Assembly (NCBI GenBank): GCA_043750715.1
Contig: JAYVBB010000524.1
Coordinates: 1 to 32,013 of the forward strand
DNA: 32,013 nucleotides
Source: Pseudomonadota bacterium
GTDB lineage: Bacteria; Bdellovibrionota_B; Oligoflexia; Oligoflexales; CAIYRB01
Direction of reading: 5' to 3'
The notes under the pieces were generated by a model, which did no database searches, had not been told where the DNA came from, and saw only the letters and a list, made by a program, of their open reading frames with translations. Positions 1-19,341 of the stretch are shown here, in pieces. Within the stretch, counting starts at the first letter, position 1; each line of letters opens with the position of its first letter. A program made the translations under genes and the position numbers.

Positions 1-36
1 AGAATTCGACTCCCTCCAAGCCAAGGAGAAGGGGAA

Positions 37-282
37 GTGAGCCTCTGGCGCAAGATCTTCGGCGAGCCCCATCGCTGCCGAATTTGCAAAGACACCGGGC
101 TCCAGTCAGACGGCTACGCCGTTCGTCCTTGTGCGAATTGTCGAGACCTGGAGCAAGAGTTTCAGAAAGCCGCCAAGAAATTCATGCGCTGCGAGTGCAA
201 GCCATTCCACTTGAGCGAGAAGGGCTTCGAAGGATGGATAAGCTGCGATACCTGCGGGATCGTCTGGGGGAGAAGTCCATGA
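37..282 (+). CDS. hypothetical Cys-rich zinc-finger-like protein (81 aa)
   Basis: GTG start preceded by AAGGAGAAGGGGAA. G/C-rich third positions. Motifs CRIC, CANC, CEC and CDTC. Confidence 0.6.
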   Translation: MSLWRKIFGEPHRCRICKDTGLQSDGYAVRPCANCRDLEQEFQKAAKKFMRCECKPFHLSEKGFEGWISCDTCGIVWGRSP

Positions 283-334
283 CGCACCCTCCTCCAACTC
301 CCAGGAAGCTGCGAGCCGAATAAGCCTTGAGTCT

Positions 335-646
335 CTACTCGTCAGTCAATTTAGCATCGGTCTCGCTCATCAGATATTCCCAGCAGCTCTTTCCGCCACC
401 GAACAGTGGGAAGAAGAGCACGATGCGGTATTTGAATACGTCTTTCCAGACAGCGAACGGCTTGGCCTGGTTGAAAGCACAGAGGATGAAGCCAGCCGGG
501 AAGGCCAGAAGCTGCATCATTAGATAGGCAGCGGCAAAGACCTGGACGAAAATTCCGAGAATGCGCACGTAGTCGATCGCGATGAGCAGAAAGAGCGGAA
601 CGACGGTGTGCGGGAAGAAGAGAGATTTCAGCTTCTCGTATTTCAC
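335..646 (-). CDS. small integral membrane protein (103 aa, about 3 hydrophobic helices)
   Basis: GTG start in a GTGA overlap with the stop of the upstream gene 643..999. Strongly hydrophobic sequence. Confidence 0.6.
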   Translation of the reverse strand: MKYEKLKSLFFPHTVVPLFLLIAIDYVRILGIFVQVFAAAYLMMQLLAFPAGFILCAFNQAKPFAVWKDVFKYRIVLFFPLFGGGKSCWEYLMSETDAKLTDE

Positions 647-999
647 TCGGTGGTCTCCGGTGGGAATTCTTCGTCGCCAGGTGGTGGAGCTTCCATTGTA
701 GCCTCAGGCGTGGCTGTTTCGCCATGCTCCGTGGCGGGTTCGCCAGGGGCATCTGGATTCGGTGAGGGTTCACCGGGCGCGGGCTCGACCAGGCCCCATT
801 CACAAAGGATCTCGCCAAGAACGTCGGTCACCTTCTCCCACAGCTCGGGATCGAAGCCCTCAGCGGTGACGGGGATACCGAACTCCTTGACATCCTTCGT
901 CCTCGGGTTCGTGATCCGGATCACGACGTCGCGGCGTCGGGCTGGAGCAGACTTCGACTCACCTTTCGGGAACAGCGCCTGTTTCAGGGTCATCACCAT
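643..999 (-). CDS. hypothetical protein with Pro/Glu-rich acidic C-terminus
   Basis: ATG at 999 preceded by AGGAG with a 6-nt spacer. The antisense ORF 608..1048 looks compositionally like a shadow ORF. Confidence 0.6.
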   Translation of the reverse strand: MVMTLKQALFPKGESKSAPARRRDVVIRITNPRTKDVKEFGIPVTAEGFDPELWEKVTDVLGEILCEWGLVEPAPGEPSPNPDAPGEPATEHGETATPEATMEAPPPGDEEFPPETTE

Positions 1000-1008
1000 G
1001 GCGCACTC

Positions 1009-1254
1009 CTATTTGCCGTCGCGTTCGAAGATCGCTTGGCGTGCGTAAACGACCGCGTCCAGCAGCTCCTGGTATAGATCGATCAGGACGTCGCGCCCAT
1101 TGTGCGGTTGGAGCGGCACGCCATATTTTCTGCGGCCCTCTTTGTCGCGAGCACTCATGTCGGCGACGACAAGATCCCAGACAGCAGGCAAATCGTTCGC
1201 CTTTGGCTTCGGCTGCTCGGTAACAAGCTTCGAGGTGCCGGTCGAATCGGGCAT
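1009..1254 (-). CDS. small conserved phage-type helical protein, function unknown
   Basis: ATG at 1254 preceded by AGAGGAA; the ORF could also start at GTG 1308. The motif RKYGVPLQPHNGRDVLIDLYQELLDAVVYARQ resembles a family I recall from other phages, but I cannot name it reliably. Confidence 0.55.
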   Translation of the reverse strand: MPDSTGTSKLVTEQPKPKANDLPAVWDLVVADMSARDKEGRRKYGVPLQPHNGRDVLIDLYQELLDAVVYARQAIFERDGK

Positions 1255-1319
1255 GGATTCCTCTGGGGAAAAGCTGTGGATCGTCTGTTGATTTCTTATG
1301 AGTAACACGTTCTGAGATC

Positions 1320-1337
1320 ACTTTCGACGTCGAAAGT
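1320..1337. repeat. 18-bp perfect palindrome ACTTTCGACGTCGAAAGT, copy 1, with adjacent half copy ACTTTCGACG at 1339-1348
   Basis: Exact match read directly. Lies between the stop of 1337..1855(-) and the start of 1009..1254(-). Confidence 0.95.
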
Positions 1338-1855
1338 CACTTTCGACGCAGGTGTGACGGGATCACTGGCGCGTACCTTTTGACCTGGAAGCCAGGCGGA
1401 ATCTCTGCGGTCTGCATCTTCGGTCGGAGCGGTGCCTCAGACAGCATGACAACAGTGACTGGGCCCACCCAGGATCTATGAATGCTCTCAAACATCAACC
1501 ACTGCTTGTCGGTCAGCATCTTCGATCCAGCCAGATCGATAATGGTCTCGGCGGCCTCTGGTGGGCACTGTCGTGCCACTTCCCGGCAGACCTCGCGCCA
1601 GTTCAAAGGCGTCCAGCGATGGTCCATCCTCGGAATTTCCTGTTGCCGAAGAGCATCAGCTCTTCTTTTTTCCTCGCGAAAAGCTTGAGCGTCCACGTCG
1701 TGCTCTCCCTTTCTTTGCTTGCGCATGCGAAGTTTCTGTCTCTTGCGGCACTGGTAATAACGACCATTCCGATACCAGTGCTTCGAGTCTGTGGCAAATT
1801 CGCCACGGCAAAATTTACAGTGTTTGACTTTCATTGGCGGGTTGTTACCACCCAT
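1337..1855 (-). CDS. hypothetical protein with N-terminal zinc-ribbon-like CxxC motif and a basic region
   Basis: 172-aa ORF containing CKFC...C and KRQKLRMRKQRK. An alternative ATG lies at 1834. First gene of the leftward block. Its stop abuts palindrome copy 1. Confidence 0.55.
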   Translation of the reverse strand: MGGNNPPMKVKHCKFCRGEFATDSKHWYRNGRYYQCRKRQKLRMRKQRKGEHDVDAQAFREEKRRADALRQQEIPRMDHRWTPLNWREVCREVARQCPPEAAETIIDLAGSKMLTDKQWLMFESIHRSWVGPVTVVMLSEAPLRPKMQTAEIPPGFQVKRYAPVIPSHLRRK

Positions 1856-2222
1856 TTTTGTGAACGGTCAAATTTTTTGAGTCGTCAAAAACGGGTGTGT
1901 ATCTTTTTATTTTCCAAAGAGAAAAAAACTTCTTCTTGACAGGAAATGACGGGGAAGGCAATTTCGGCCTTCCCTCGCGTGCCTGCACGACAATTAACGG
2001 AACCTGAAACGGAACGCAAATTTAACTCAGATAAAAAAGAAAGATAATGGGGCGGAGCGAAGCGAACGCCCTGAAGCGAAGCCGCCAGGCGTAGCGACGA
2101 TAAGGATCGAAGCTTGCACCTCAAGAAAACATCCAACAAAATAATGAATAACTATATTTATTCTAAATCAGAGTTAACGCGGCCCACCGACGCAAAGATT
2201 AGTCCTCCTCTCGATCCTTACG

Positions 2223-2329
2223 GCAGAGAGTAAACCTCGCTACGCTCGGCCCTTCGGGCTAGTTTACTCTCTGCGAGGGGAACTTCGTTCCCCCAAAATC
2301 TTCTGCGAAGAGACCACCGCAGGAAGATT
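2223..2329 (+). ncRNA. candidate structured RNA or 5' leader (three consecutive stable hairpins)
   Basis: 13-bp stem 2223-2235/2262-2274 enclosing a GC mini-hairpin with a TTCG loop. 7-bp stem GGGGAAC/GTTCCCC at 2277-2293. 11-bp bulged stem 2297-2307/2318-2329. UUCG-type loops are only present if transcribed from the + strand. Confidence 0.3.
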
Positions 2330-2373
2330 GAAGATAGAACACGGCAGCAGAATGGAGTAGAAAGGCGACGTCC

Positions 2374-2391
2374 ACTTTCGACGTCGAAAGT
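2374..2391. repeat. 18-bp palindrome copy 2, overlapping an imperfect inside-out version at 2360-2379
   Basis: Exact match. Lies 38 bp upstream of the GTG at 2429. Confidence 0.95.
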
Positions 2392-2428
2392 CTCGCCATG
2401 CACGCCACCAAAATCCAAGAGGCGACAC

Positions 2429-2806
2429 GTGTCCCTAAAGAACGACCGACTAAGTCGGCTCGAAAGCCTATTTCGTCAGGGTGCCGCCACCACAGCGAAT
2501 GAGATGACCATCCTCGTCCAGTCAGGCGACGACATGATGCCGGGCGACGAGGTCTACGATAACGATTTCGAGAAATGGGAGCTGATCCAAAAACCCACAG
2601 GGTCCGTGAGAGAGTTCGATGTCGTAAGACGTAAAGTGTTCGATCCGATGGTGCTGCTGAAAACGATCTGCGAGGTCTATGATCTGGCCGACCGCGACTT
2701 CAAAGGCGGCGAGGGTCCGTGGTGGTCGTCGATGGACGTCTTTGTCAGCGAGGCAAAGCGGCGATTGGGGCAGAAAACGTTAGAACTCTATTCGAGGGAA
2801 GAATGA
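2429..2806 (+). CDS. hypothetical protein (125 aa)
   Basis: GTG start with AAGAGG 6 nt upstream. First gene of the rightward block. Confidence 0.6.
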   Translation: MSLKNDRLSRLESLFRQGAATTANEMTILVQSGDDMMPGDEVYDNDFEKWELIQKPTGSVREFDVVRRKVFDPMVLLKTICEVYDLADRDFKGGEGPWWSSMDVFVSEAKRRLGQKTLELYSREE

Positions 2807-3150
2807 TCAGGATCTACAAGTATGAGCTTCAGCTCACCGACGTGCAAAAATTGCTGATGCCGCAAGGCGCGGTGATCATTAAGGTGGGTGAGCAGAAGAA
2901 GATGCAGGAGGACAAGATGTACGGCGGGCAGTCGGTCCAGCCGGTCCTCTGCGCATGGGCGGTGGTAGACGATCAGCTCGAACCGATGCCGCACTCCGTG
3001 CGCGTTCTCGGAACGGGTCATCCGATCGACCAGAACGACGTCCTGGCCTACGACTACTTCGACACGACGATCATGAGCGACGGCTTCGTTTGGCACGTGT
3101 TCTTCGACAAGGACGCCCACACTGTGCATCGCGAAAGACTGGCGAAGTGA
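2803..3150 (+). CDS. conserved phage hypothetical protein (MIRIYKYELQLTDVQ... family)
   Basis: ATG in an ATGA overlap with the upstream stop. The N-terminus and the GTGHPI...FVWHVF pattern resemble a recurrent phage DUF. The ORF-track start at 2719 is probably too early. Confidence 0.6.
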   Translation: MIRIYKYELQLTDVQKLLMPQGAVIIKVGEQKKMQEDKMYGGQSVQPVLCAWAVVDDQLEPMPHSVRVLGTGHPIDQNDVLAYDYFDTTIMSDGFVWHVFFDKDAHTVHRERLAK

Positions 3151-3392
3151 GCGATCTCGAAGCCCGTTACCGCCACGCGCTCGCGACCGTCTGCGACGTC
3201 GTCGCCAAGATGCAGGAGGACACGCTGTCGCTTAAAAGCTGTGACTTCCTTCGCAAGGTCTGCCGCGAGGCGATGCCTGATCACCCGGCCTGGATGCAGC
3301 GGGCGAAACGGGTAAGCAAGGCCAAGAAGGGGATCACGCCGTTCATGGAGGCGCTGGACGAGGTGGAGGACTCCGGCCTGGATGAGCTATGA
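3147..3392 (+). CDS. hypothetical protein (81 aa)
   Basis: GTG in a GTGA overlap with the upstream stop. Good G/C3 bias. Confidence 0.5.
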   Translation: MSDLEARYRHALATVCDVVAKMQEDTLSLKSCDFLRKVCREAMPDHPAWMQRAKRVSKAKKGITPFMEALDEVEDSGLDEL

Positions 3393-3411
3393 GGTCGTAT
3401 AACTATACTAG

Positions 3412-3657
3412 ATGTTCATTTTGGGATTCATCATCGGGGTCGTGGGTGCGTCGGTCGCTTGGACGATCGCGTGCCTTTTGTCGTTTCATCGCTGGCTGAG
3501 GAAATATCATGTGGGTGACTGTTCTGGGTCCGGCTGGATCATGCAAACGTGCGGTCGTGGACGAACTGGTGAAAAAGGACGGCTTCCTATTCGAACGGGA
3601 GACGTTGGTTTTCTCCGACCGACCTACCGTCCAGCAGCAGGGTCGAGCGATTTGTGA
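3412..3657 (+). CDS. possible small membrane protein (N-terminal TM helix); tail overlaps the next gene out of frame
   Basis: The first ~33 codons are hydrophobic with G/C3 bias. The bias is lost after 3509, where the next gene starts. No obvious RBS. Confidence 0.35.
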   Translation: MFILGFIIGVVGASVAWTIACLLSFHRWLRKYHVGDCSGSGWIMQTCGRGRTGEKGRLPIRTGDVGFLRPTYRPAAGSSDL

Positions 3658-4108
3658 GCGCTGGAAGATGGCCATCTCGTTGACCAAGCGTCAGGAAGAA
3701 GCCGACTACCTGACCATCAGGAGCTTTTGGAATTCCGAGATCTACCTCGGTGCGATGCACGAGTGTCGGATGATCACCGAGGCTGAGTTCGAGACGCTTA
3801 CCGAGTTCTACCAGACGATGGTCAAAGCCGTCGCGCCACCTCATGCTGCGATCTATCTCAAAACGACGCCGATGCAGGCCCAGGCTCGGTGCGCACTCAC
3901 CGGCAATATGGTCAGCGACGAGTTCGAGGGCTGCGTCCGTCGCCGCTACGATGAGCACGTCGAGAAGATGAATCTCTCCGTTGTGAGGATCGAGAACGAC
4001 ACAGAGCAGTTCGAAAACGTGCTCGCTGAGGTACGCAGTGCGATGAACGATTTCCGCGCCTCGAACATCGGTCAGCCATCGGTCTGGAAACGGAGTTACT
4101 ACAAGTGA
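3509..4108 (+). CDS. deoxynucleoside kinase-fold protein with degenerate catalytic motifs
   Basis: RBS GAGGAA. Alignable by eye to the dNK family: LGPAGSCKR at the P-loop position, TIRS at the ERS position, and AIYLKTTPMQAQAR at the (I)IYLRxxPE position. Confidence 0.55.
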   Translation: MWVTVLGPAGSCKRAVVDELVKKDGFLFERETLVFSDRPTVQQQGRAICERWKMAISLTKRQEEADYLTIRSFWNSEIYLGAMHECRMITEAEFETLTEFYQTMVKAVAPPHAAIYLKTTPMQAQARCALTGNMVSDEFEGCVRRRYDEHVEKMNLSVVRIENDTEQFENVLAEVRSAMNDFRASNIGQPSVWKRSYYK

Positions 4109-4338
4109 TGTTCCAAAATACATCGGAGCTGAAACAGGCGGTACTCTTCTTCCGGCAGACGAAAGAAAACCTGACGACGTTCGCCAGGGTCACCGACGAT
4201 CTCGGCTTGTCGCGGTCCTTCGGCGTGTTCGGCCCACGAAGAATCAGAATCAAAAAGCTGAAGCGAGTGATGATGGCCACCGCCGAGTTCGAGATGAGCC
4301 AGGCGCTCCGTGCGGCCAAAATCGGAGAACCGACATGA
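4105..4338 (+). CDS. hypothetical protein (77 aa)
   Basis: GTG/ATG overlapping the upstream stop. Coupled to its neighbours. Confidence 0.5.
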   Translation: MMFQNTSELKQAVLFFRQTKENLTTFARVTDDLGLSRSFGVFGPRRIRIKKLKRVMMATAEFEMSQALRAAKIGEPT

Positions 4339-4712
4339 GTGAGTCGGAGGAGAAGGTTGAGTCGATGGCGGACGCCATGAAGCGAGCGAACAAGATGGCA
4401 GATGACACCGCTCAAGCGATCCGCGAGGTGGAAGCACAGTCGAGGTCCGAGTTGGTCGAACGTGCGGTTCTCGCGACCGCTCGCGACATCGTCAAAGGTG
4501 TGATCGAGCGGAACGCCGAGAGCATCAACGAAAATGCGATGAAGTGGATGCGCGATCTGATCCGCGAAGAGTTCGAGAAGATGGGCATGGTCGGGATCAT
4601 CCACGAGGAAGCCCACAAGTTCATCAGAGAGAAGAGCGAAGAGCTGGGAACGCCGTTCCTGCGTGCACTCGAAGCCAAAGAGTTGGAAGTGGAAAAACCA
4701 AAGGAGAAGTGA
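4335..4712 (+). CDS. hypothetical acidic helical protein (125 aa)
   Basis: ATGA overlap with the upstream gene. Glu/Lys-rich, predicted helical. Confidence 0.6.
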   Translation: MSESEEKVESMADAMKRANKMADDTAQAIREVEAQSRSELVERAVLATARDIVKGVIERNAESINENAMKWMRDLIREEFEKMGMVGIIHEEAHKFIREKSEELGTPFLRALEAKELEVEKPKEK

Positions 4713-4897
4713 TGAGTTTGCTGTCTATCGTTATCGCCCTGGCAATTACTGGTTTCTTGTGCTGGCTCGTACTCCAGATTCCGATGCCGCAGCCGGTCAG
4801 GAACGTGATCATTGGGGTCATGATTTTGTTTTTGGTCTTGTGGGTTCTCCAGGCACTCGGTGTCGTGACAGGATTGCCGCACTTGACACTGAAATAA
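4712..4897 (+). CDS. small two-helix membrane protein (61 aa)
   Basis: ATG overlapping the upstream TGA, with AAGGAG upstream. Sequence MSLLSIVIALAITGFLCWLV...VIIGVMILFLVLWVLQALG. The ORF-track start at 4544 is too early. Confidence 0.65.
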   Translation: MSLLSIVIALAITGFLCWLVLQIPMPQPVRNVIIGVMILFLVLWVLQALGVVTGLPHLTLK

Positions 4898-4909
4898 CGG
4901 AGCCGGACG

Positions 4910-5149
4910 ATGAGCGGTTGGTGTGTGAAAGAGATGTTCATGGACGTTGATCAGTCTGAGATCTCGTTTTTGAACAGGGCGCTGAAGGCTCATCGCGAAG
5001 GCTTCGAAGATCTAGACCTAACCGGGGCTCTCCCCCGCGATGAGAGGAATGATGAAAACGAGGATCAAAGACTGGGTCAACATCAAGACCTGGCGCGAGT
5101 TCTACAGCTTCCAGGTTTTCATCGACCGCAAGTGGTGCCTACTCACTGA
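4910..5149 (+). CDS. hypothetical protein; C-terminal tail overlaps the next gene
   Basis: GGAG 8 nt upstream of the ATG. G/C3 bias holds to about 5040, then is lost. Confidence 0.4.
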   Translation: MSGWCVKEMFMDVDQSEISFLNRALKAHREGFEDLDLTGALPRDERNDENEDQRLGQHQDLARVLQLPGFHRPQVVPTH

Positions 5150-5288
5150 CGGCAAAACCCTCGTCTCCTTCAAGACCGAGGAAGAACGTGACCGCGTACA
5201 AGTCCTTGTTCGCAAGGCCAAGACGGTCAAAGAGACCGCGAAGATCATCGAAGAGAATTTCCCGGAGAAGAGGAAGAAGAGAAAGTGA
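5040..5288 (+). CDS. hypothetical protein (about 80 aa)
   Basis: Strong G/C3 bias. Possible starts at 5040, 5049 or 5052, with GAGAGGAA nearby. Confidence 0.6.
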   Translation: MRGMMKTRIKDWVNIKTWREFYSFQVFIDRKWCLLTDGKTLVSFKTEEERDRVQVLVRKAKTVKETAKIIEENFPEKRKKRK

Positions 5289-5479
5289 AGCTAAAGCCCC
5301 ACGAGCACACCCATAGCCTCTACGTCCACTGTCTCGACTGCCACACGTTCGGCATTCCTGGCGAGAAAGAGACCGAGAATCCCGCCAATGCCGCTGAGTG
5401 CGGAAACTGCCGGTCCATGCGAACACTTGCACCTCATGTTGCCTGGCACAGCGCCCGCCAAGCGCACGCTGCCGGGTGA
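5285..5479 (+). CDS. small zinc-ribbon protein (CLDC...CGNC)
   Basis: GTG in a GTGA overlap with the upstream stop. Two CxxC pairs. Confidence 0.5.
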   Translation: MKLKPHEHTHSLYVHCLDCHTFGIPGEKETENPANAAECGNCRSMRTLAPHVAWHSARQAHAAG

Positions 5480-5801
5480 GAAGTGGCCGTCGAACGTGTG
5501 GCCGGACGAGACGAAGATCTTGGCCTGTGCCATGCTGACGTGTCGCCGGATCGGCATGGACCCCGAGATCATCATGCACGAGCAGATCCTGACGCCTGCC
5601 CGAAAAGGCTGGGGTCTTGGCGTGCCAAATTACAATGGAAATTGGGAGCCTCATGCAAAAAAAGCGCTTGGCTTTGCTCTGCCAGTAGAGGACTCTAGTT
5701 CCTCTCCCAGTTCAGACGACGCCGATTTTTATCCACCGCTCGACAGCGAAGAGATGCAAAAACGGCGTGGCTTCATCGACCTGCTCGACGAGATCAAATA
5801 A
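5388..5801 (+). CDS. hypothetical protein; start uncertain (5388 or ATG 5436)
   Basis: Coding bias is clear from about 5470 onward. The TAA stop at 5799-5801 overlaps an ATG at 5801 (TAATG). Confidence 0.5.
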   Translation: MPLSAETAGPCEHLHLMLPGTAPAKRTLPGEKWPSNVWPDETKILACAMLTCRRIGMDPEIIMHEQILTPARKGWGLGVPNYNGNWEPHAKKALGFALPVEDSSSSPSSDDADFYPPLDSEEMQKRRGFIDLLDEIK

Positions 5802-5978
5802 TGCCGTCAGCAACGGCAAAAGAGCAGGCAAGGGGCAGACGTTTACACTCACACTCATAATCATAGTTTTTACAGCATAGCTGATGGCCTTTTCTCGCCG
5901 AAGACGTGGGCGAAAGCCTATAAAGAGAAAGGCTTCAAGGCGGCGGCGCTGACCGACCACGGGACGCTGGCTGGCTCT

Positions 5979-8900
5979 TTGCCGTTTTACCATGCGATGC
6001 GTGAAGAGAGACTGACACCAATAATTGGTTGCGAGTTTTACTTTGTAGAAGATCCGCTCATCAAGGACGAGACGAGCCGATCTGCGGCCCATCTCATTCT
6101 GCTGGCGAAAGATTTCGAGGGCTGGCTGAACCTGCTGAAGCTGTCGCGCTTGTCCTATGAAGAGGGCTTCTACTACAAGCCACGGATAGGGATGAAATGG
6201 CTCGCCACACACAGCGGCGGTCTGATCTGCCAGACGGCATGTCTTGGCGGCGTACTCTCAAGAGAGGTTTGGCGCGAGCGCGACGGCAAAAGCACCATCG
6301 GTCTTGAACAGCGCTGGCAGCAGTTCCACGCAATATTCGGCAACGATCTTTACGTGGAGTTCCAGGGTCATAATGCTCCCGATCAACAGTTGATCAACGA
6401 AGCGTTTGTTGCGCGTCTATCGCTGACGCCTGGGTTTCAGCATGTCTGTAGCAACGACAACCACTACATTCTTCCAGAGCATGCCAAAATCCAACTGCTG
6501 ATCAAGGCGTCGGCTTTCAAGAACGCGGAAGCTGCCGCCAGCTACACGAACTTCGACTCGCTCTGGCTTAAAAGCCCACGTGACGTCTACGAGACCTTTC
6601 GCGAGCACCACGAATACCTGCCGAAGGAGTTCATCGTTCGCGGTATGCGCTCGACCGAAGAGATCTTCGAGAAGTGTGCCAATTTCGAGCTGCCGAAGAA
6701 AAAGTATCTGCCGCGCTACAGCGACGACGGAGGCTTCTTCAAGACGCTGACGCTTCGGAAGCTGAAAGAGTTCCTGGCGAAAGAGGATTGGCGCTTCGCG
6801 TCCAAAGAGACCTACATCGAGCGTTTCAAGAACGAGTTCGAGGTGATCACGAAGTACGGGCTTCAGGACTATTTCCTGCTGGTCTGGGACATCGTCGAGT
6901 GGGCGAACAAGAAAGACATCTTCGTCGGCATCGGTCGCGGCAGCTCGGCGGGCAGCTTCATCTGCTACCTGCTCGGCATCGTCAAGATCAACCCGCTCCA
7001 ATACCGGCTGATCTTCGAGCGCATGCTGAACGCCAACCGCTGCGAGAACGGCGAGCTGCCGGATATCGATCTCGACTTCGAGAGCCTTCGCCGCAACGAA
7101 GTGAAGGACTACGTCTTTAAGAAATACGGCAAGGAGTACGTCTGCGAGATCGGCACCTATGGGCGGATGATGCTCAAGACGGCGATCGTCGATTTCGGGA
7201 AGCAATTCGGCTTCGAGGCACGGGATCTGGTGATGATCACCACGAATCTCGGGCTCGACAAGACGGACGCGCAAAGCCTCGACGCTGCGGTCGAGTCGTC
7301 GCCGAAGCTGAAGTCGATGATGGTCGAGCACCCGGATTACGAGCACGCGGTGAAGGTGGCGATCGGTCAGATCAAGAGCCAGTCGATTCACCCGGCAGGC
7401 GTGTTGATTTGCTCGGACCCGCTCGAAACGGTGACGCCGCTCAAGACGCAGAAGAAAGCCGACAAGGGTTCGAAGAAGGCTGGCGAGAACCGCGTGATCG
7501 TGACGCAGGCTGAAGATAAGCACGTGATCAGCCAGGGCCTCGTCAAGATGGATTTCTTGGGGCTGAAGGAATACGACATCTTCAAGTCGGTGATCGAGAA
7601 TGCGAAGGCTGCGGGCTACGAGCATGAACTGACGAGCAAGAACTACATCGACGTTATTCACGACGCTGAAGTGGCAAAACCCGACGCCAAAGTCTGGGAG
7701 CTGTTCCGCCAGGGAAAGACCGAGGCGGTGTTCCAGTTCGGCTCGGACGGCATGAAGCAGCTTTTGATCGACATGAAGGCAGACAGCTTGGCGGATCTTG
7801 TCGCCGCCGTTGCGCTCTATCGGCCTGGCTGCCTAGAGAACGGCTGGCACACGCAATACTACCGCCGCAAGGCTGGCGAAGAGGAAGTTGAGTTCGTGCA
7901 CCCGGTGCTCGAAAAGGTTCTGGCCGACACCTACGGCGTGGTGATCTATCAGGAGCAGTTCATGGAGGTATTCCATCTGCTCGGTGACGTGCCCATGGTG
8001 GACGCTGACACGATCCGCTCGGCGCTCGGCAAGAAGGACGTCGAGAAGCTGAACAAGTTCGAGGCGAAGTTCGTCAAGGGCGCGGCAAAGAAGATCGGCG
8101 AAGCTGAAGCGAAGGTCGTCTGGGATCAGCTCGCTAAAGCGTCGGGCTACACGTTCAACCGCTCGCACTCGGCGGTCTATGCGATCGTCGCCTATGTGAG
8201 CCAGTGGATGAAGGTGCACTTCCCGATCGCGTATTGGGCTGCCGTCGTCGATTGGAACTGCCGCAAGAAAGAGACCGACCTGCTCTCGAACAAACGCGCC
8301 GCCGCCGACATGGGCGTGCGCTTCCTGATGCCGGACATCAACAAGTCGAAGGTGCACTTCGCGATCGACGAAGAAGAGAAGATGCCGCGCTGGTCACTCT
8401 CGGGTATCTCGGGCATCGGGGAAAAGACCGCAGCCAACATCGTCGAAGGTCAGCCATACGCGACCGTCGAGGATTTCTTGAAGCGCATTCGCGGCGTCAA
8501 CATCAACAACAAGCTGACGCTGGCCTACGCGGGTGCATTTGACAAACTCTGCGACCGGAAGCAGGCGATTGACAAGATCTTCGCCACGAACAAGAAAAAG
8601 AAGAAACCGAAGATCACCGACTCGATGCTCCTCAGTTCCTATCATGCAGCTCTTGGATTCTTCGAGAGCAAGCTGGCGTCGATTTACAAAGGCATCAGCG
8701 ACAAGACCTGGAGTGAAGAGGAGGTCCGCGAAACCGCACCGGGTGAACCGCTGATGGTCGCGGGCATGGTGTCATCGATCAAGAAGGTCAAGACGAAGCG
8801 CGGCGATGTCATGGCGAAGGTGGGACTCGTCGATTCGGACGAGAGCTTCGAGCTGACGGTGTTCCCCGAGGCGTGGGCGATGTCGGTGATGGTCTTCCAG

Positions 8901-8993
8901 CTCGGCAACGTTGTGCAGGTGGCAGGCATGAAATCAGAGTACGGCGGGCGGCATCAAGTCGAAGTGTCCGAAGTCGAAGTGATCACGGAGTAA
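5979..8993 (+). CDS. dnaE: DNA polymerase III alpha subunit (DnaE-type, about 1000 aa); homology clearly extends upstream to at least 5841
   Basis: Motifs: ALTDHGTLAG, PDIDLDFE, IHPAGVLI, VIYQEQFMEV, FNRSHSAVYA, and a C-terminal OB fold (MVAGMVSSIKKVKTKRGDVMA). The PHP motif VYTHTHNHSFYSIADG is encoded in the same frame at 5841-5888, upstream of the first canonical start (TTG 5979). Confidence 0.9.
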   Translation: MPFYHAMREERLTPIIGCEFYFVEDPLIKDETSRSAAHLILLAKDFEGWLNLLKLSRLSYEEGFYYKPRIGMKWLATHSGGLICQTACLGGVLSREVWRERDGKSTIGLEQRWQQFHAIFGNDLYVEFQGHNAPDQQLINEAFVARLSLTPGFQHVCSNDNHYILPEHAKIQLLIKASAFKNAEAAASYTNFDSLWLKSPRDVYETFREHHEYLPKEFIVRGMRSTEEIFEKCANFELPKKKYLPRYSDDGGFFKTLTLRKLKEFLAKEDWRFASKETYIERFKNEFEVITKYGLQDYFLLVWDIVEWANKKDIFVGIGRGSSAGSFICYLLGIVKINPLQYRLIFERMLNANRCENGELPDIDLDFESLRRNEVKDYVFKKYGKEYVCEIGTYGRMMLKTAIVDFGKQFGFEARDLVMITTNLGLDKTDAQSLDAAVESSPKLKSMMVEHPDYEHAVKVAIGQIKSQSIHPAGVLICSDPLETVTPLKTQKKADKGSKKAGENRVIVTQAEDKHVISQGLVKMDFLGLKEYDIFKSVIENAKAAGYEHELTSKNYIDVIHDAEVAKPDAKVWELFRQGKTEAVFQFGSDGMKQLLIDMKADSLADLVAAVALYRPGCLENGWHTQYYRRKAGEEEVEFVHPVLEKVLADTYGVVIYQEQFMEVFHLLGDVPMVDADTIRSALGKKDVEKLNKFEAKFVKGAAKKIGEAEAKVVWDQLAKASGYTFNRSHSAVYAIVAYVSQWMKVHFPIAYWAAVVDWNCRKKETDLLSNKRAAADMGVRFLMPDINKSKVHFAIDEEEKMPRWSLSGISGIGEKTAANIVEGQPYATVEDFLKRIRGVNINNKLTLAYAGAFDKLCDRKQAIDKIFATNKKKKKPKITDSMLLSSYHAALGFFESKLASIYKGISDKTWSEEEVRETAPGEPLMVAGMVSSIKKVKTKRGDVMAKVGLVDSDESFELTVFPEAWAMSVMVFQLGNVVQVAGMKSEYGGRHQVEVSEVEVITE

Positions 8994-8995
8994 CG

Positions 8996-9418
8996 ATGAG
9001 CGTTAAGGATTTGGAAATTGCGATCGAAGGACTCCTGCCGCAAGAGATCCGCATCAAGCTGAAGGCAGAGCTGACCGTCTCGGAGGACTTGGAGCGCGAG
9101 GTCCGCCGTACAGCGGCACAGTTTGGATACTATGCGGTGCTCGCGGAGAAGGCCGAGTCCCGCCATCGTCGCGGCAAGCTTGGCTACGACATGTGGCGTA
9201 GCGGCTACGAGGACGAGCTGTCTCGCGACACGTCTTTCAAACGGGTGAAGGACCTGACGCGCCTTGTAATGCAGAGCCCGAAATACAAAGCTTGGATGCT
9301 CAAGCTGGATCAATATGAAGAAGAAGCAAGAATCATCAAGGCAATCGCCAAGGCGTTCGAGATCAAGAAAGATCTCGTCCAAACATCGGCGGCGGATCGT
9401 CGCAAGGAGATGCGGTAA
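8996..9418 (+). CDS. possible UvsY-like recombination mediator (140 aa)
   Basis: ATG 2 nt after the dnaE stop. Its size, helical pattern and position next to the gp32-like and UvsX-like genes fit UvsY. Loose by-eye similarity to T4 UvsY only. Confidence 0.4.
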   Translation: MSVKDLEIAIEGLLPQEIRIKLKAELTVSEDLEREVRRTAAQFGYYAVLAEKAESRHRRGKLGYDMWRSGYEDELSRDTSFKRVKDLTRLVMQSPKYKAWMLKLDQYEEEARIIKAIAKAFEIKKDLVQTSAADRRKEMR

Positions 9419-10338
9419 TGGCAATGAAGGTGGTGAAGGCTAAGTCGTCGGAAGAGGCAAAGCCGAAGAAGAAGTTGAAGGTCGTCGCGACCGAGCCTGA
9501 AGTTGATCCCGAGGAGCCAGACGAGGCTGAAGAGGAAAAGCCTGCGAAAAAGGCGAAGGCCGAAAAGCCCAAGAAGACTGCTGAGAAAGCACTTTCGACG
9601 TCGAAAGTCGAGGCGGTCGTTGTTGACTCGGTGAGTCTTCTCACAGAAGCGCGGGTCGCCTATAAAGCTTTCCAGGTTTCGTGGTTCGATTTCGCCAAGA
9701 AGTTGAAGGAAATTCGTGATGCCGAGGCGTGGCATGCGAGTGGGCAGGAGGACTTCACGTCGCTCTGTCGCGAGGAGTTCCCCGACATCCCGGCGTCTAC
9801 GATCTCGAAGTTCATCAAGGTCGTGGAAGAGTTCGGACCGGCGATGGAGGCGCGTGTGAAAGGGCTGAAAGCGCTGCCGTCGTATGATGCTCTGTATGAG
9901 GTGGCGGTCAACGAGAAGAAGATCCCGAAGGAAGATTCGATGCGCCTCCGCAAGGCGGTCGTCGATTGCAAGATCTCGGTGCGGGAGGTGCGGGAGGTCG
10001 TTCGCGGTCTCGTCTCAAAGAAGCCGACGAAGCACGCCGAATCGCGGGAAGAGAAGAAGAAGGTCAGGCGCGAAGAGATCGGCCTCAAGACGGAGGATGC
10101 GGAAGCCTCGGATGAAGATGTCGAGGTGGACGAGAAGGAAGAGATCACGTCGAGCATCGACAAGAATGCCGACGCGCTGCTCAAGCTGGTCAGGAAGCTG
10201 ATCAGCGACATCCCGGCGATCACGTCGTCGATGAAAGAAGGGACGGCGAAGCTGATCGAGCTGGCTGAGGCGATGGAAGAACTGCACGTCCAGAACAACG
10301 AGTTCTTGGATAAACTCGAAACGGTGTCGAACTCCTAA
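9418..10338 (+). CDS. hypothetical protein with Lys/Glu-rich N-terminal low-complexity region; possible DNA-binding protein
   Basis: TAATG overlap with the upstream gene. 306 aa. Contains palindrome copy 3 in frame (LSTSKV). Confidence 0.6.
   Translation: MAMKVVKAKSSEEAKPKKKLKVVATEPEVDPEEPDEAEEEKPAKKAKAEKPKKTAEKALSTSKVEAVVVDSVSLLTEARVAYKAFQVSWFDFAKKLKEIRDAEAWHASGQEDFTSLCREEFPDIPASTISKFIKVVEEFGPAMEARVKGLKALPSYDALYEVAVNEKKIPKEDSMRLRKAVVDCKISVREVREVVRGLVSKKPTKHAESREEKKKVRREEIGLKTEDAEASDEDVEVDEKEEITSSIDKNADALLKLVRKLISDIPAITSSMKEGTAKLIELAEAMEELHVQNNEFLDKLETVSNS
9591..9608. repeat. 18-bp palindrome copy 3 (inside a CDS)
   Basis: Exact match. Encodes LSTSKV in the low-complexity N-terminal region. 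Confidence 0.95.
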
Positions 10339-10350
10339 GAAAGGTAGCAG

Positions 10351-11442
10351 ATGGAAAAGACGAAGAAGAAGGGCAGCATGCTCGACCGCCTGAAGAACGA
10401 GGCGAAGCGGGTGAACGATGTTGAAGCATCACGTGGTGACTTCACGCGCATGTTCAAGCCGGAGAAGGGCGACAACCTGATCCGTATTTTGCCGCACTGG
10501 GATGTGAAGAAAAGGTCGAACGGCGACGAGCTGTTCTTCGCCAGGCGTCTGGTCCACTATCTCCCGGAGACCGGACGTGACGGTGGTCAGTACAATGCTC
10601 CACTTCGCTGCCTGAAGGACGATCAGGATGAAGCGTGTCCGGCGTGCCAGGTCTATGCGAGACTGAAGAAGTCTCAGAACAAGAAGGCGAACGATTTCCG
10701 TCCGACCGAGCGCTACCTCTACAACATCATCGACTACGGCGCAAAAGGTGGCGAGACCGCCGAGCCGCAGGTAGTGGTGTACGCGGCACCGTTTTCGATT
10801 CACAAAGAAGTCATGAACTGGGTCGAGGAACTCGGCACTGAGTTCTGGGACCTCGAAGCGGGCCGCGACTGGAAGCTGAAAAAGCTGGTCGATGCGTCGA
10901 AGGGTGCGCGAAACGGCACGAGCTATAAGCTGATGCCGAAGCTGCAAGACTCGGCGGTGCCGAAGAAGCTGCGTGAGCTGCTCGACAAGATGGCCGACCT
11001 CGATGCGATGTGGGCCGGTTACGATGAAGCGAAAATTCTGAAAGCTCTGAAACTCGCCGGTCAATCGGTCGAGGAAGCGGATGAAGAGACCGAAGAAGAA
11101 GAGGACGAAGAAGAGGACGAAGCCCCGAAAAAGGGGAAGTCCAAAACCAAAGCGAAGGAGGACGAAGATGAAGAGGAAGAAGAAGAAAAAGAAGACGACG
11201 ATTCGGACGACGACGAGGAAGAGGAAGAAGAAAAGTCCGCGAAAAAGTCTGCAAAGCCCAAAGCCAAGCCAAAGGCTGAAGCGGACGACGAAGAGGAAGA
11301 AAGCGACGACGAAGAAAGCGACGACGAAGAGGAAGTGAAACCGAAGAAGGTTACGAAGGCTGAGGCTCCCGCAAAGGCCAAGGTCAAAAAGAAATCTTCG
11401 GACACTGATATCGACGACGAACTCCGCTCGCTGGGTGTTTAA
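10351..11442 (+). CDS. T4 gp32-like single-stranded DNA-binding protein with a very long acidic/lysine-rich tail
   Basis: LIRILPHW corresponds to the gp32 IRFLP motif. The zinc site pattern is H...C...CPAC. YLYNII and an acidic C-terminus ending DIDDELRSLGV are also present. Confidence 0.7.
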   Translation: MEKTKKKGSMLDRLKNEAKRVNDVEASRGDFTRMFKPEKGDNLIRILPHWDVKKRSNGDELFFARRLVHYLPETGRDGGQYNAPLRCLKDDQDEACPACQVYARLKKSQNKKANDFRPTERYLYNIIDYGAKGGETAEPQVVVYAAPFSIHKEVMNWVEELGTEFWDLEAGRDWKLKKLVDASKGARNGTSYKLMPKLQDSAVPKKLRELLDKMADLDAMWAGYDEAKILKALKLAGQSVEEADEETEEEEDEEEDEAPKKGKSKTKAKEDEDEEEEEEKEDDDSDDDEEEEEEKSAKKSAKPKAKPKAEADDEEEESDDEESDDEEEVKPKKVTKAEAPAKAKVKKKSSDTDIDDELRSLGV

Positions 11443-11741
11443 TGGAAAAGAACTCGGATAGGGTCAATTTTTCTTTTGGCATGAAAATCCCTGGCCCTGT
11501 CCAGTTCTCCAGCTTTACGTTCAGTTGCTCGTACAGCACGGATCTGATGCCCGAAGAGACGCCGGAGGACGCGATAGATCGCGTTCGGAAGCTTGTAATG
11601 GCAGAAGTTGAGAAGGACTATAATGCGCACCGAGACGACAGCCAGCGAGACGTCGGAGACGACAGCGAGTTCGCCGCCGAAATTTCAAAGAAGAGCGAAG
11701 GTGGAAAAAGCCGTCGCAAAAAAGAAGACGAAGAAGACTGA
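11442..11741 (+). CDS. hypothetical protein (99 aa)
   Basis: TAATG overlap with the upstream gene. The tail overlaps the next gene. Confidence 0.45.
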   Translation: MEKNSDRVNFSFGMKIPGPVQFSSFTFSCSYSTDLMPEETPEDAIDRVRKLVMAEVEKDYNAHRDDSQRDVGDDSEFAAEISKKSEGGKSRRKKEDEED

Positions 11742-12795
11742 GACGCTGACCGAGTTCAAGATCAAGGGATCGAACTCGTGCGACAATCTTATCGACTCCG
11801 TGGCCAAGGGCCTCGGCAAGTCTTTCGCTGTCGAGATGATGCACACGGATGCAGAGGACAACGTCCCCTATTACATTCCGTTTAAGCACGTCGGCCTGCA
11901 AGCGATTACGGGAGGCGTGCCAGGCGGCATGATGACGGTGATCGAAGGCGACTCTCAGTGTGGCAAGTCCTACCTTCTTTACGAGCTGATCGTGCAGACC
12001 GTGTTGATGGGTGGCTACGCCTTCCTTTCGGACCCGGAGAACGCATTCCAGCCGCGATTCATGAAACGTGTGGGGCTCGACGCCAGTAAGCGGTTTATCT
12101 ACACGAGCCGCGAAAACCAGCTCGCCCGCACGTTCATGATGTGGCGGAAGTTTGTCACCGCTGTCCGCGAGAAAGACAAGGTGTCACCGATCCTGATCGG
12201 TGCGGACTCGTACCCGGCCCTGCAGATCAAGCTGGTCGTGGATGAGTTGACGAAAAAGTCAGCGTCGAATGGAACCGGCGAGAAGAGAGACGAGCTGACG
12301 GGCTACCTCCAGGCGCGTAAGAACGCGGAATTCGCGCAGCTCCTGGGGGAGTTCGTCGGCTTCATGTCCGAGAACAAGGTGGCGCTGGTGTTCATTAACC
12401 AGCTCCGCAACAAGATCGGCGTGTTCTTCGGTGACTCGACGACAACCAACGCTGAGACGATCTTCAAATACTTCGCCACGCTGCGGATTCGCGGACGGCT
12501 TGGCAAGAAGATCAAGGAGAGCGCGGCCAAGGCAAAGGAAGGCGCTGCCCGTCAGGTCGGCGTGCGGTCGAACTGGGAGACGATCAAGAACAGGAACGTT
12601 GAGCCGTTCAAGAAGATCGAGACGAGGATCATCTACAAGAACGGCGTCGATCCGATGTCGGGGCTGATCGATCTGCTCGCGACTGAGGGTAAAATCGCTC
12701 TCGCAGACGACGGCTTCTTCTTCAACAAAAAGCAATTTCAGGAAGAAGATCTGGCGAAGTTCATCGCTGATCACCCTGAAGTGTTGAGTCTATAA
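11623..12795 (+). CDS. RecA/UvsX-family recombinase
   Basis: Walker A GDSQCGKS, Walker B-like ILIGADS, FINQLRNKIG (RecA INQIR region), and GVDPMSGLIDLL (UvsX GIDPYSGLLDM). ATG 11623 is preferred over TTG 11608. Confidence 0.8.
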   Translation: MRTETTASETSETTASSPPKFQRRAKVEKAVAKKKTKKTETLTEFKIKGSNSCDNLIDSVAKGLGKSFAVEMMHTDAEDNVPYYIPFKHVGLQAITGGVPGGMMTVIEGDSQCGKSYLLYELIVQTVLMGGYAFLSDPENAFQPRFMKRVGLDASKRFIYTSRENQLARTFMMWRKFVTAVREKDKVSPILIGADSYPALQIKLVVDELTKKSASNGTGEKRDELTGYLQARKNAEFAQLLGEFVGFMSENKVALVFINQLRNKIGVFFGDSTTTNAETIFKYFATLRIRGRLGKKIKESAAKAKEGAARQVGVRSNWETIKNRNVEPFKKIETRIIYKNGVDPMSGLIDLLATEGKIALADDGFFFNKKQFQEEDLAKFIADHPEVLSL

Positions 12796-12796
12796 G

Positions 12797-13072
12797 GTGA
12801 ATAAAATGAGACCGAGCGAATACCTGGAGCGGGACAGAAAGAATCCGATGAACCCGATTTACCGGATGCTCACACCGGGTCAGCGCACCGAAGCGGAGAC
12901 GGTGATCAAAGCCGGATTCGATCTGATCGGAAGCCGAATGGACGAGGACTATAAAGACATGACCCCCGACGCGGTGAACGCGATGTCTGTGCTTCAGGGC
13001 TTTCTGTGCGCATTCATCGAGCATGCCATGAATCCAGCGCTGATCCGTGAGCACATGGAGGCGATGGCGTAA
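12797..13072 (+). CDS. hypothetical protein (about 90 aa)
   Basis: GTG 12797 or ATG 12806. Good G/C3 bias. Confidence 0.55.
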   Translation: MNKMRPSEYLERDRKNPMNPIYRMLTPGQRTEAETVIKAGFDLIGSRMDEDYKDMTPDAVNAMSVLQGFLCAFIEHAMNPALIREHMEAMA

Positions 13073-14110
13073 GTGGCACTTCACCTGCTCTATTCGGATG
13101 TTCACGTGAAACGGGAAACACTCGCTGTTGTTCGGCGGGTGTTCGACTGCATCGGCGAGCAGGCGGTGAAGCTCGGAGTCGTCAAGACGGGCGGCTACGT
13201 CCTCAACAACGGCGACTTGTTCGATCAGCGCGGCCTGATTCCAACGGCGTGCTGGGACCTTGTCGTCGAGGCGCGAACGAAGTGGCAAGAGCTGGGAATC
13301 CAGCACATCGACAATGTCGGCAACCACGACCAGGACGATCGCGATGGCGAGATCCACCCTTTGAAGATCTTCGAGTCGTTCGGCTGGGAGGTCTGCACGA
13401 AGCCGACCTTCATCGACGAGTTCAGCTTCGCGGTGATCCCTTACACGCACGGGCTCGCGGCAGAGCTGCCTGAGGCGGCAGAGATGAAACCGAAAGCGCT
13501 CTTCGTTCACGCAGGCATCAAGTCGGCCTTCAGGAACGACAAGAGCCGCGACACGGACGGCATCTCGATCGAGCTTTTCGCCCCGTTCAAGCGGGTATTC
13601 TCGGGCCACTATCACTTCCGGCATGAGGTCGAGAACGTCCAATATATCGGCTCAACGCATCAGCACACGCACGCTGAAGCGGGCCAAGACAAAGGCTTCC
13701 TGATCTATAACGACAGGACGGGCGAGATCGTGTTCCATGAGATCCCCGGCACACCGAAGCATTACAGCATGCGGCTCGGTTTTAACGACTCGGGCAAGCT
13801 GGTGATCCAAGAAGGCAAGGAGCTGGTCGGCGAGCTGGAGACCTGTGATCTGGTGAAGGTGCACGTCAGCGGGCGCTCGGATCAGGTCAAGATGGTTTCG
13901 AAAGGCCAGGTGACTGACAAAATCAAACACGATGGCTTCACGCTCGAACGACACATTGTGGACGAGACGGTGTCGCGGCTGGAGATCAGCAATGGCGGCA
14001 AGGCTCTCGACCAGAAGGATTTGATTTCGAAGTACGTGAACTTCATCGATCCAAGCCTCGACAAGAAAAAGCTCGTGTCGCTTGGCTCGGAGTTCCTGGG
14101 AGGCCACTGA
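13073..14110 (+). CDS. sbcD: Mre11/SbcD/gp47-type metallophosphoesterase nuclease
   Basis: Phosphoesterase motifs in order: SDVH, GDLFD, GNHD, VHAG, GHYH. Confidence 0.8.
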   Translation: MALHLLYSDVHVKRETLAVVRRVFDCIGEQAVKLGVVKTGGYVLNNGDLFDQRGLIPTACWDLVVEARTKWQELGIQHIDNVGNHDQDDRDGEIHPLKIFESFGWEVCTKPTFIDEFSFAVIPYTHGLAAELPEAAEMKPKALFVHAGIKSAFRNDKSRDTDGISIELFAPFKRVFSGHYHFRHEVENVQYIGSTHQHTHAEAGQDKGFLIYNDRTGEIVFHEIPGTPKHYSMRLGFNDSGKLVIQEGKELVGELETCDLVKVHVSGRSDQVKMVSKGQVTDKIKHDGFTLERHIVDETVSRLEISNGGKALDQKDLISKYVNFIDPSLDKKKLVSLGSEFLGGH

Positions 14111-14448
14111 TGCCGCTTTACGAGTTCGGCTGCGAGAAATGCAAAGAACGGCGCGATGCCATGCTGTCGTATGAAGAGATGCTGGCAGCACGCGAGTGCA
14201 AGCTGAAGTGTCCGAGCTGCGGTGACGAGACCGGGGCATACCGAGAGATTTTCACGAAGGCACCGTTGGGCAGGGTCGGCGGGCCTGGCAGCGACCGGGA
14301 CATCGCTGCGATGCAACAATCTTTCCGTGAACACTTTCAAAAATCGGGTGAAGCAGATGAGGTCAGACATAAGCACGGGTCAGCGTTCGATGACAGCATC
14401 CGTGGTGCCGCCGCCGAAAAAATCAAACAAAATCTTGGGACGGCTTAG
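14110..14448 (+). CDS. FmdB-family (CxxC_CxxC_SSSS) zinc-ribbon protein
   Basis: MPLYEFGCEKC...CPSCG is typical of the family. TGATG overlap with the upstream gene. Confidence 0.6.
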   Translation: MPLYEFGCEKCKERRDAMLSYEEMLAARECKLKCPSCGDETGAYREIFTKAPLGRVGGPGSDRDIAAMQQSFREHFQKSGEADEVRHKHGSAFDDSIRGAAAEKIKQNLGTA

Positions 14449-14467
14449 AAAGAGCATCAAGGGCTAC

Positions 14468-14764
14468 GTGCGCCACCAGTGGGTGGATATGGGGCAGGTG
14501 AAGCCAGAAGCGCGGTCGCTACCGCACTTGATCTCGCTCAACAGCGAGGCGGGCACGATCGACTTCAGGATCCGAAACCAGAAGGATCTGTGCCGATTTC
14601 GTGATCACTATCTGAATCGCTTTCATGAGCTGATCGCGAAGCACAAGGATGGCGAGAAGATCACCCGTGAACTGTTCGTCCTTTACGACGAGATTCGTCG
14701 CCACTTCCGAGTGAAATACCGCGCCAATGTCAGGACCCGCCTGCGGTCCCATCTCCCGATCTGA
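14468..14764 (+). CDS. hypothetical protein; start uncertain (14357, 14390, 14468 or 14489)
   Basis: Coding bias downstream of 14448. GTG 14468 is preceded by AAGGG. Confidence 0.45.
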   Translation: MRHQWVDMGQVKPEARSLPHLISLNSEAGTIDFRIRNQKDLCRFRDHYLNRFHELIAKHKDGEKITRELFVLYDEIRRHFRVKYRANVRTRLRSHLPI

Positions 14765-14771
14765 GGTCTCC

Positions 14772-16574: not shown

Positions 16575-17019
16575 GCCGAGGACGAAGGCGTATATCGCAT
16601 GGATGAACATGAAGCAGAGATGTCTTAATCCGAAATCAACATATTTTAGCGACTATGGTGGGCGCGGCATTCAGGTCTGTGAGCGATGGATAGATTTTAA
16701 AAACTTTTTCAGCGACATGGGCGATCCACAGTGTGGGCAAACGCTTGATCGCAAGAACAACGATGGAAACTATGAGCCGTCGAACTGTCGATGGACGACT
16801 CGTAAAAATCAGGCGCAAAATCGTCGATCAACGAGGCGCTTGGAGTTCTTGGGGAAGTCCCTTCCGCTTATAGAGTGGTCCAGGATAACGGGGCTTGACT
16901 GGAGAACTATCAGCTACAGGCTTGGCAGAGGCTGGACCGTAGAAGATGCGCTGACGAGGCCCAAGATCTCCCTCGGCGAAGCGGGCAAACTCGGAGCTGT
17001 CGGGAAATGGAGGCCATAG
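16567..17019 (+). CDS. HNH-like (degenerate) homing-endonuclease-family / DNA-binding protein
   Basis: YIAWMNMKQRCLNP...YGGRGIQVCERW...LDRKNNDGNYEPSNCRWTT matches a widespread phage family, followed by a C-terminal HTH-like segment. TTG start overlapping the sbcC stop. Confidence 0.5.
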   Translation: MSRPRTKAYIAWMNMKQRCLNPKSTYFSDYGGRGIQVCERWIDFKNFFSDMGDPQCGQTLDRKNNDGNYEPSNCRWTTRKNQAQNRRSTRRLEFLGKSLPLIEWSRITGLDWRTISYRLGRGWTVEDALTRPKISLGEAGKLGAVGKWRP

Positions 17020-19339: not shown

Positions 19340-19341
19340 CC

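Follow-up and report, generated by a model that had tools for sequence, protein, structure and literature searches.

The infC gene begins with AUU, and near-cognate AUH starts of this kind are weak and discriminated against by IF3. In prfB, the gene of RF2, a Shine-Dalgarno (SD) element lies 3 nt from the codon at which the ribosome shifts, CUU-U forms the slippery sequence and a stop codon occupies the A site; the site is conserved across most bacteria. Both arrangements serve here as a comparison for a dnaE-type polymerase gene on contig JAYVBB010000524.1 (assembly GCA_043750715.1), of which positions 1 to 32,013 of the forward strand were analysed and are called the window in the following. 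Conserved coding sequence of this gene reaches upstream of every canonical start codon in its frame. In Streptomyces, sigR starts at GTC behind a strong ribosome-binding site (RBS) and is repressed by IF3, with GTT found at this position in two species; the start was proven experimentally and is conserved in 32 of 34 species (Feeney et al. 2017, PMC5472188). In Escherichia coli, initiation is measurable from most codons, with AUA, AUC, AUU and CUG reaching about 0.02-3% of the AUG level and most other codons 0.01-1% (bioRxiv 10.1101/063800).

The proposed coding sequence extends from 5841 to 8993 on the + strand, on which all features of the dnaE region described below are located, and comprises 1050 codons plus stop, as delimited by Pfam matches and the alignment with P0003. 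This relative (1048 aa) and the window protein read from 5841 (1050 aa) are collinear from end to end with 78% identity over 1051 columns. Similar to other phage replicases of the DnaE (Pol III alpha) type, the product shows the domain order PHP, pol III alpha, finger, HhH and OB, and its gene is part of a module with a gp32-like single-stranded DNA-binding protein (SSB), a RecA/UvsX-like protein and SbcCD. Pfam scores of 127 bits (PHP), 224 bits (DNA_pol3_alpha), 151 bits (finger) and 55 bits (HHH_6) were obtained for the product from 5841, so that the four domains defining a DnaE-type Pol III alpha are present in order and above the Pfam thresholds. The OB match is weak with 23.5 bits and remains under its cut-off. 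The nearest proteins are of metagenomic phage origin; among named phage genomes no close match was found at the DNA level, and protein identity does not exceed 32%. The window polymerase differs from the described replicases in having neither a canonical start nor an intein, several relatives containing one or two of the latter. Such inteins (Intein_splicing, HNH/LAGLIDADG) occur inside the DnaE of many clade members, including P0004, P0005, P0017, P0026, P0043-P0045, P0049, P0056 and P0077, with protein lengths of 1200-1730 aa.

Upstream, a gene of 137 codons (5388..5801) ending in ...DLLDEIK-TAA is read in the same frame as DnaE. From its TAA at 5799-5801 onward the DnaE frame is open and translates to CRQQRQKSRQGADVYTHTHNHSFYSIADGLFSPKTWAKAYKEKGFKAAALTDHGTLAGS, or, split at the start proposed below, to CRQQRQKSRQGAD-VYTHTHNHSFYSIADGLFSPKTWAKAYKEKGFKAAALTDHGTLAGS. 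The initial annotation had stated that this frame encodes the PHP N-terminus 5' of any canonical start, with no ATG, GTG or TTG between the TAA and the TTG at 5979, and translation, Pfam and alignments bear this out; CTG, ATT, ATC and ATA are likewise missing 5' of TTG 5979. The invariant PHP motif H-x-H is encoded by CAT AAT CAT at 5856..5864 (H7 and H9 in the 31-sequence alignment A1) and the invariant T-D-H-G by ACC GAC CAC GGG at 5952..5963 (columns T39, D40, H41 and G42 in A1, T38-G41 in alignment A3). Together with D-G, all invariant PHP columns of A1 and A3 are thus retained, and all lie 5' of the first canonical in-frame starts, TTG 5979 and ATG 5997 (5979..5999), the latter being the start chosen in the public gene call P0001. 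Read from 5841, the protein matches positions 1-164 of the Pfam PHP profile; read from ATG 5997 only positions 51-164 are matched and the score decreases from 127 to 69 bits. The first 46 residues from 5841 show about 72-80% identity to P0003 and P0004, and this conservation equals that of the rest of the protein. Judged by these comparisons, the stretch from 5841 is real DnaE coding sequence and not a chance open reading frame (ORF).

N-termini were compared in a set of 80 close relatives. Nearly all of them start 3-6 residues before H-x-H, typically with M-[F/Y]-x-x-x-H-x-H, and in at least 12 this motif begins at the position homologous to GTT 5841..5843 of the window. The codons GTT(5841)-TAC-ACT-CAC align without gaps with the start regions of L002 (GTG-TAC-GTT-CCA), L162 (ATG-TTC-ACT-CAC), L163 (ATG-TTC-ATC-CAT) and L164 (ATA-TTT-ACG-CAC, with ATA at L164 435-437), so that GTT takes the place of GTG, ATG, ATG and ATA, respectively. 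By protein comparison, the same M-[F/Y] position is occupied by ATC in L165 (1375-1377) and L166 (197-199). In L001 the dnaE ATG is located one codon further 5' and directly follows the stop of the homologue of the upstream gene (TAG|ATG).

A wider scan of DnaE loci located the H-x-H...DH motif and walked 5' to the preceding stop. A canonical start (ATG, GTG or TTG) was present a few codons 5' of H-x-H in 219 of 219 motif-bearing entries, composed of 140 from a first set and 79 from a second IMG/VR set that was fetched with the N-terminal clade alignment, several contigs being entered twice; 21 loci of the first set and one of the second gave no motif match and fall outside this count. Eleven additional clade loci (L162-L172) were obtained by protein look-up. 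Three of these lack a canonical start and represent two distinct phages, L164 and L165/L166. No out-of-frame ATG is found near the ATA or ATC start position in these loci. GTT at the start position was encountered in no other DnaE locus among about 220; judged by these loci, the codon is not kept in diverged relatives. The lack of a canonical dnaE start in the window is real and unusual, with one case in about 220 loci and two milder ones among relatives.

Nine database proteins among the relatives lack H-x-H, and all of them were checked. Seven are gene-caller artefacts with a canonical start 5' of the motif (P0014, P0047, P0057, P0060, P0068, P0073 and P0078), and two are genuine non-canonical cases, P0006 (L164, ATA) and P0040 (L165/L166, ATC). 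The latter two are N-terminally truncated in the database because ATA or ATC stands at the homologous start position and no canonical start precedes H-x-H. P0040 occurs on four contigs, of which the two shown here, L165 and L166, differ by one synonymous change. With seven of nine explained by skipped canonical starts, N-truncated calls were rejected as a recurring phenomenon of the relatives. Under-called dnaE N-termini despite an upstream ATG, GTG or TTG were observed at L093, L167, L168, L169, L170, L171 and L172; gene finders miss this N-terminus systematically in the clade. On sequence grounds, the ATA and ATC cases show that the clade tolerates weak starts, which is not to be taken as conservation of GTT.

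The GTT is preceded at a distance of 5 nt by AAGGGG (5830..5835), for which a duplex energy of -6.8 kcal/mol with the 3' tail of 16S rRNA was calculated, a value equalled at only 4.3% of the window positions. It is better than the median of the putative gene starts in the window (-5.9 kcal/mol) and than the values of the alternative starts ATG 5801 (-3.0 kcal/mol), TTG 5979 (-3.3 kcal/mol) and ATG 5997 (+1.2 kcal/mol). The relatives without a canonical start exhibit the same trait: in L164 (TGA-GCC-ATA) a GGAGG is located 5' of the ATA with -9.3 kcal/mol, and in L165/L166 a GGGAG 5' of the ATC with -7.4 kcal/mol. Relatives starting with ATG or GTG range from -1.8 to -5.8 kcal/mol, so that the SD is stronger at all three non-canonical loci. 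A strong SD in combination with a non-canonical start resembles the pattern of Streptomyces sigR (PMC5472188). The other near-cognate codons in frame, AAG 5820 and AGG 5826, lack an SD at a suitable distance and were dropped.

We tentatively favour, at somewhat below even odds, a reading in which dnaE is translated by SD-directed initiation at the degenerate GUU 5841, the codon homologous to the start of the relatives. The preference is based on this homologous position, the good SD, the ATA and ATC cases of the clade and the literature precedent for GUY starts. The ATG or GTG start of the relatives would have been replaced by GTT in the window, and AAGGGG 5830-5835 would be an ordinary RBS 5 nt upstream of the GUU. 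Here 30S subunits would be recruited and fMet-tRNA would initiate on GUU at a low rate, yielding the full-length polymerase of 1050 residues with an intact PHP domain. Pairing of GUU with the initiator anticodon would combine a first-position wobble as in GUG with a third-position mismatch as in AUU, AUC and AUA. The ATG 5801, coupled as TAATG, would be the start of a separate ORF of 19 codons and not that of the polymerase. That GUU initiates, and that the output is sufficient, we infer. Initiation at GTT 5841 is an option that the initial annotation had missed, and it finds support, at the level of sequence, in those relatives that carry ATA or ATC in its place.

The comparison with sigR reveals several likenesses. 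In both genes a GUY codon stands at a position set by a good SD with conserved coding sequence immediately after it, and in both the real N-terminus is missed by automatic gene callers; low, IF3-sensitive expression would be a likely consequence by analogy. The differences are that the window GTT occurs in one phage population only, and that AAGGGG is weaker than the AGGAGGTG of sigR. With infC-type genes the window shares the third-position mismatch in the start codon, and L164 (ATA) and L165/L166 (ATC) fit this class directly. However, GUU deviates from AUG at two positions, and there is no evident autoregulatory logic for a phage polymerase. Two features expected of a functional non-canonical start are present, namely homology of the codon to the start of the orthologues and an SD at functional spacing, and the adjacent replication genes are intact and keep synteny with L001, with no sign of general decay.

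Several points weigh against initiation at GUU. No other examined DnaE locus carries GTT at this position, so that neither conservation nor selection is indicated, and GTT was met in one phage population only, in two runs that are possibly replicates. GTT is no near-cognate of AUG, and a very low efficiency is therefore expected. TAATG at the ends of real genes in the window is usually a genuine coupled start. Finally, L001, the closest relative sharing the upstream gene, has an abutting ATG; a disruption of this arrangement by 37 nt would be equally parsimonious, and the SD would then be fortuitous.

The last point concerns the junction between the two genes, which varies in the clade. The upstream gene of 137 codons shows 55% identity to the gene directly 5' of dnaE in L001 and has a partial homologue in L162; its product gave no Pfam or PHROG match. 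The two genes are separated by 0 nt in L001, by 39 nt in the window (5802..5840, a purine- and GCA-rich spacer running from the upstream stop to the homologous position of the dnaE start) and in L162 by an ORF of 52 codons (L162 201-359) that is coupled on both sides (ATGA, TGATG). Where dnaE adjoins the conserved 'LDEIK' gene there is thus an indel hot spot (L162 201-359, window 5802-5840, L001 3000/3001). The spacer was found neither elsewhere in the window nor in any fetched locus, and a mobile or repeated insertion was rejected owing to this uniqueness. As the initial annotation had described, ATG 5801-5803 overlaps the TAA as TAATG in the adjacent frame, and its 19-codon ORF, MPSATAKEQARGRRLHSHS* (5801..5860), stops at TAA 5858-5860 after crossing SD and GTT, so that a net +1 shift would link it to the DnaE frame. 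No counterpart of this ORF was found in the relatives. Since the junction varies and L162 has a coupled 52-codon ORF in this place, the 19-codon ORF may be what is left of a small gene present there in relatives. Alternatively, a coupled ATG as in L001, with GTT as codon 2, may have been split by the insertion of 37 nt (3n+1). From sequence comparison, the two histories appear equally parsimonious and are not separated by the data; either one would leave the question how the DnaE frame is entered. The repeated use of TAATG coupling noted in the initial annotation holds in so far as two long ORFs are linked this way at three or four places (9416, 11440, 22385, perhaps 25581), but the 13 occurrences in the window are fewer than the composition predicts. 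RNA folding of 5785-5875 was not significant (z = -1.1), with only a weak hairpin of 5 bp (GCCGU/ACGGC) at 5803-5817.

Among the rival explanations, the one that comes closest is a start-loss allele, which we regard as unlikely, though less so than the others. Here the start codon would be mutated, e.g. from GTG to GTT, and no useful amount of polymerase would be made; the contig would then stem from a phage or prophage variant that is defective or hypomorphic and is rescued by co-infecting relatives or the host polymerase, or that is simply inert. The uniqueness of GTT among about 220 loci and its confinement to one population are in accordance with this, a single G-to-T change from a GTG as in L002 would be enough, and a related phage of lower depth (about 85% alike, 7140-7454) is present in the same samples. 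On the other hand, both runs have GTT as their consensus at about 12x and lack any alternative contig covering the start, no other gene of the replication module appears broken, and the N-terminal 46 codons show no excess divergence, although a recent mutation would not cause any either. These data come from Logan contigs of two sediment-metagenome runs of one study, the only runs containing the region. The contigs of both runs are identical to the window over 1-20000 at about 12x depth, and neither run gave an alternative contig over the dnaE start at the consensus level of assembled contigs. Contig break points are the same and the depth ratio is constant between the runs, which suggests that they are not fully independent and may be replicates. 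Contigs of low depth (2.5-4.5x) and about 85% likeness cover conserved parts of dnaE at 7140-7454 and 7898-7975, pointing towards at least one related phage in the same samples. The same data bear on an error in sequence or assembly, either a substitution at 5843 (true GTG) or an indel of 1 nt in one of two runs, A4 (5818-5821) or G4 (5832-5835), by which ATG 5801 would come into the DnaE frame. Such a consensus error we consider improbable: the window and both Logan assemblies agree over 20 kb at about 12x, accuracy looks Illumina-like, short-read consensus errors are rare at this depth, and homopolymers of 4 nt are not error-prone in such data. Inspection at the level of assembled contigs and the possible origin of both runs from one library leave some room for it. 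The homopolymer error considered in the initial annotation would in addition create an extension of 13 residues that is absent from the relatives, and would leave the well-placed SD and the codon homology unexplained. A genuinely truncated polymerase starting at TTG 5979 or ATG 5997 is less probable still. These are the first canonical starts in frame, and the gene caller picked ATG 5997 for P0001; yet neither has an SD (-3.3 and +1.2 kcal/mol), a start at 5997 costs the first 50 positions of the PHP profile and, with them, the invariant H-x-H and T-D-H-G, the 46 codons removed are conserved like the rest of the protein, and the seven similar calls in relatives proved to be artefacts with canonical starts upstream. 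Readthrough of TAA 5799, which would fuse the upstream protein of 137 residues to DnaE, has hardly any probability. Both ORFs share a frame and are only 39 nt apart, but TAA followed by T is generally known as the most efficient bacterial terminator context, and TAA clearly terminates other genes of the window. The L001 genes share a frame only because they abut, each with its own stop and start, and in L162 another gene lies between the two.

The initial annotation had preferred a programmed +1 frameshift as in prfB from the TAATG-coupled ATG 5801, and such a shift, programmed or fortuitous, we judge to be doubtful, slightly more so than start loss. After about 13 codons the ribosome would stall, its P site occupied by CGU (5840-5842) and its A site by the very rare UUA (5843-5845), AAGGGG 4 nt upstream would pull on the anti-SD as in prfB, and the +1 shift to UAC would give MPSATAKEQARGRR-YTHTHNHS...; the pair CGT TTA (5840..5845), from which +1 at CGT reaches GTT 5841, is the candidate site, with GCA-AGG-G or AGG-G (5828-5834) as an alternative. 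The local codons of the ATG-5801 frame read ...GCA AGG GGC AGA CGT TTA CAC. In favour of such a shift, ATG 5801 is coupled to a real gene at a TAATG of the sort normally used at gene ends in the window, the offset is +1 with the 0 frame open until 5858, and the window equals the abutting ATG arrangement of L001 plus 37 nt (3n+1). Similar to prfB, a short initiable 0-frame ORF overlaps a main ORF in +1, and a G-rich SD-like element stands a few nt 5' of the P-site codon (4 nt versus 3 nt in prfB), followed by a slowly decoded A-site codon. The rare-codon context described earlier needs revision in this respect: the SD-like AAGGGG is there, whereas AGG (13% of the Arg codons) and AGA (6%) are only moderately rare, the truly rare codon being TTA 5843-5845, the rarest in the large genes of the window with one occurrence in the 4590 codons counted there. 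In contrast to prfB, AAGGGG ends at a distance of 4 nt from CGU and 1 nt from AGA, and no 0-frame codon lies at 3 nt; a slippery codon of the CUU-U type is missing, the stop in the A site is replaced by a rare sense codon, and the arrangement is not conserved in orthologues. The P-site tRNA does not re-pair from CGU to GUU, and at AGG-G, where it could, the site overlaps the SD rather than following it and the A-site codon GGC is the commonest Gly codon. There is neither a stop codon at the shift site nor a stimulatory RNA structure, and the SD is fully accounted for as the RBS of the homologous start position. None of about 220 related loci needs a frameshift, and an extension of the N-terminus similar to MPSATAKEQAR is absent from all 80 close relatives. 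A close variant, recoding on GUU 5841 fed by the 19-codon ORF, is about as doubtful or a little more so; it could take the form of a prfB-like +1 shift at CGU-UUA or of termination-reinitiation, in which ribosomes ending the short ORF at 5858 would possibly be recaptured by the SD and restart on GUU. A bypass as in T4 gene 60 was considered for its matching GCA codons (5810, 5816 and 5828 in the ATG frame, 5835 in the DnaE frame) and rejected in view of the missing stop after the take-off codon and the lack of a conserved hairpin and of conservation in general. No tRNA genes were found within the window, and an initiator or suppressor tRNA encoded by the phage was dropped as an explanation for this reason. 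In sum, the comparison of sequences partly supports the initial annotation: its anatomy of the junction is right, but the mechanism it preferred finds no support in any relative.

If the GUU start proves true, it would be among very few natural GUY starts and the first on a phage replicase. Its novelty would be modest: if functional, the GUU would add one member to a small class, that of non-canonical starts. Taken with the relatives that have ATA or ATC, it would suggest that the clade keeps polymerase dosage low via weak starts discriminated by IF3. Recoding or reinitiation would instead represent a newly evolved device that sets the dose of a phage replicase, and a mere start-loss allele would be an ordinary finding. 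For annotation, gene callers cut such genes short, as in the public call P0001, from which the PHP metal-binding motifs are missing.

The neighbourhood on the + strand is a phage replication module according to Pfam and PHROG matches, and its gene order is syntenic with L001. Domain matches identify the gp32-like SSB (10351-11442), the RecA/UvsX-like protein (11608-12795), SbcD (13073-14110), SbcC (14727-16574) and a ParB-methyltransferase (20463-21881). The C-terminal part of the SSB gene contains a long acidic low-complexity stretch of GAA/GAC/GAG repeats (11060-11340), which draws many unrelated contigs, with a depth of 58-79 compared to about 12 elsewhere. At 10209, inside the ORF 9418-10338, a second Logan contig lacking 5 nt was observed in both runs (word depth about 8.7 versus 21 in total), which may reflect a variant with a frameshift or else a related strain. 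In addition, a perfect palindrome of 18 nt, ACTTTCGACGTCGAAAGT, occurs in six copies in the window (1320-1337, 2374-2391, 9591-9608, 20187-20204, 24991-25008 and 30691-30708), none being expected by chance. It was not found in the 172 relative loci searched. Several copies are located at or near gene boundaries, e.g. just 5' of the ORF at 30724 and between 24843 and 25041, and the palindrome is a candidate for an operator or a promoter- or terminator-associated site specific to the window phage.

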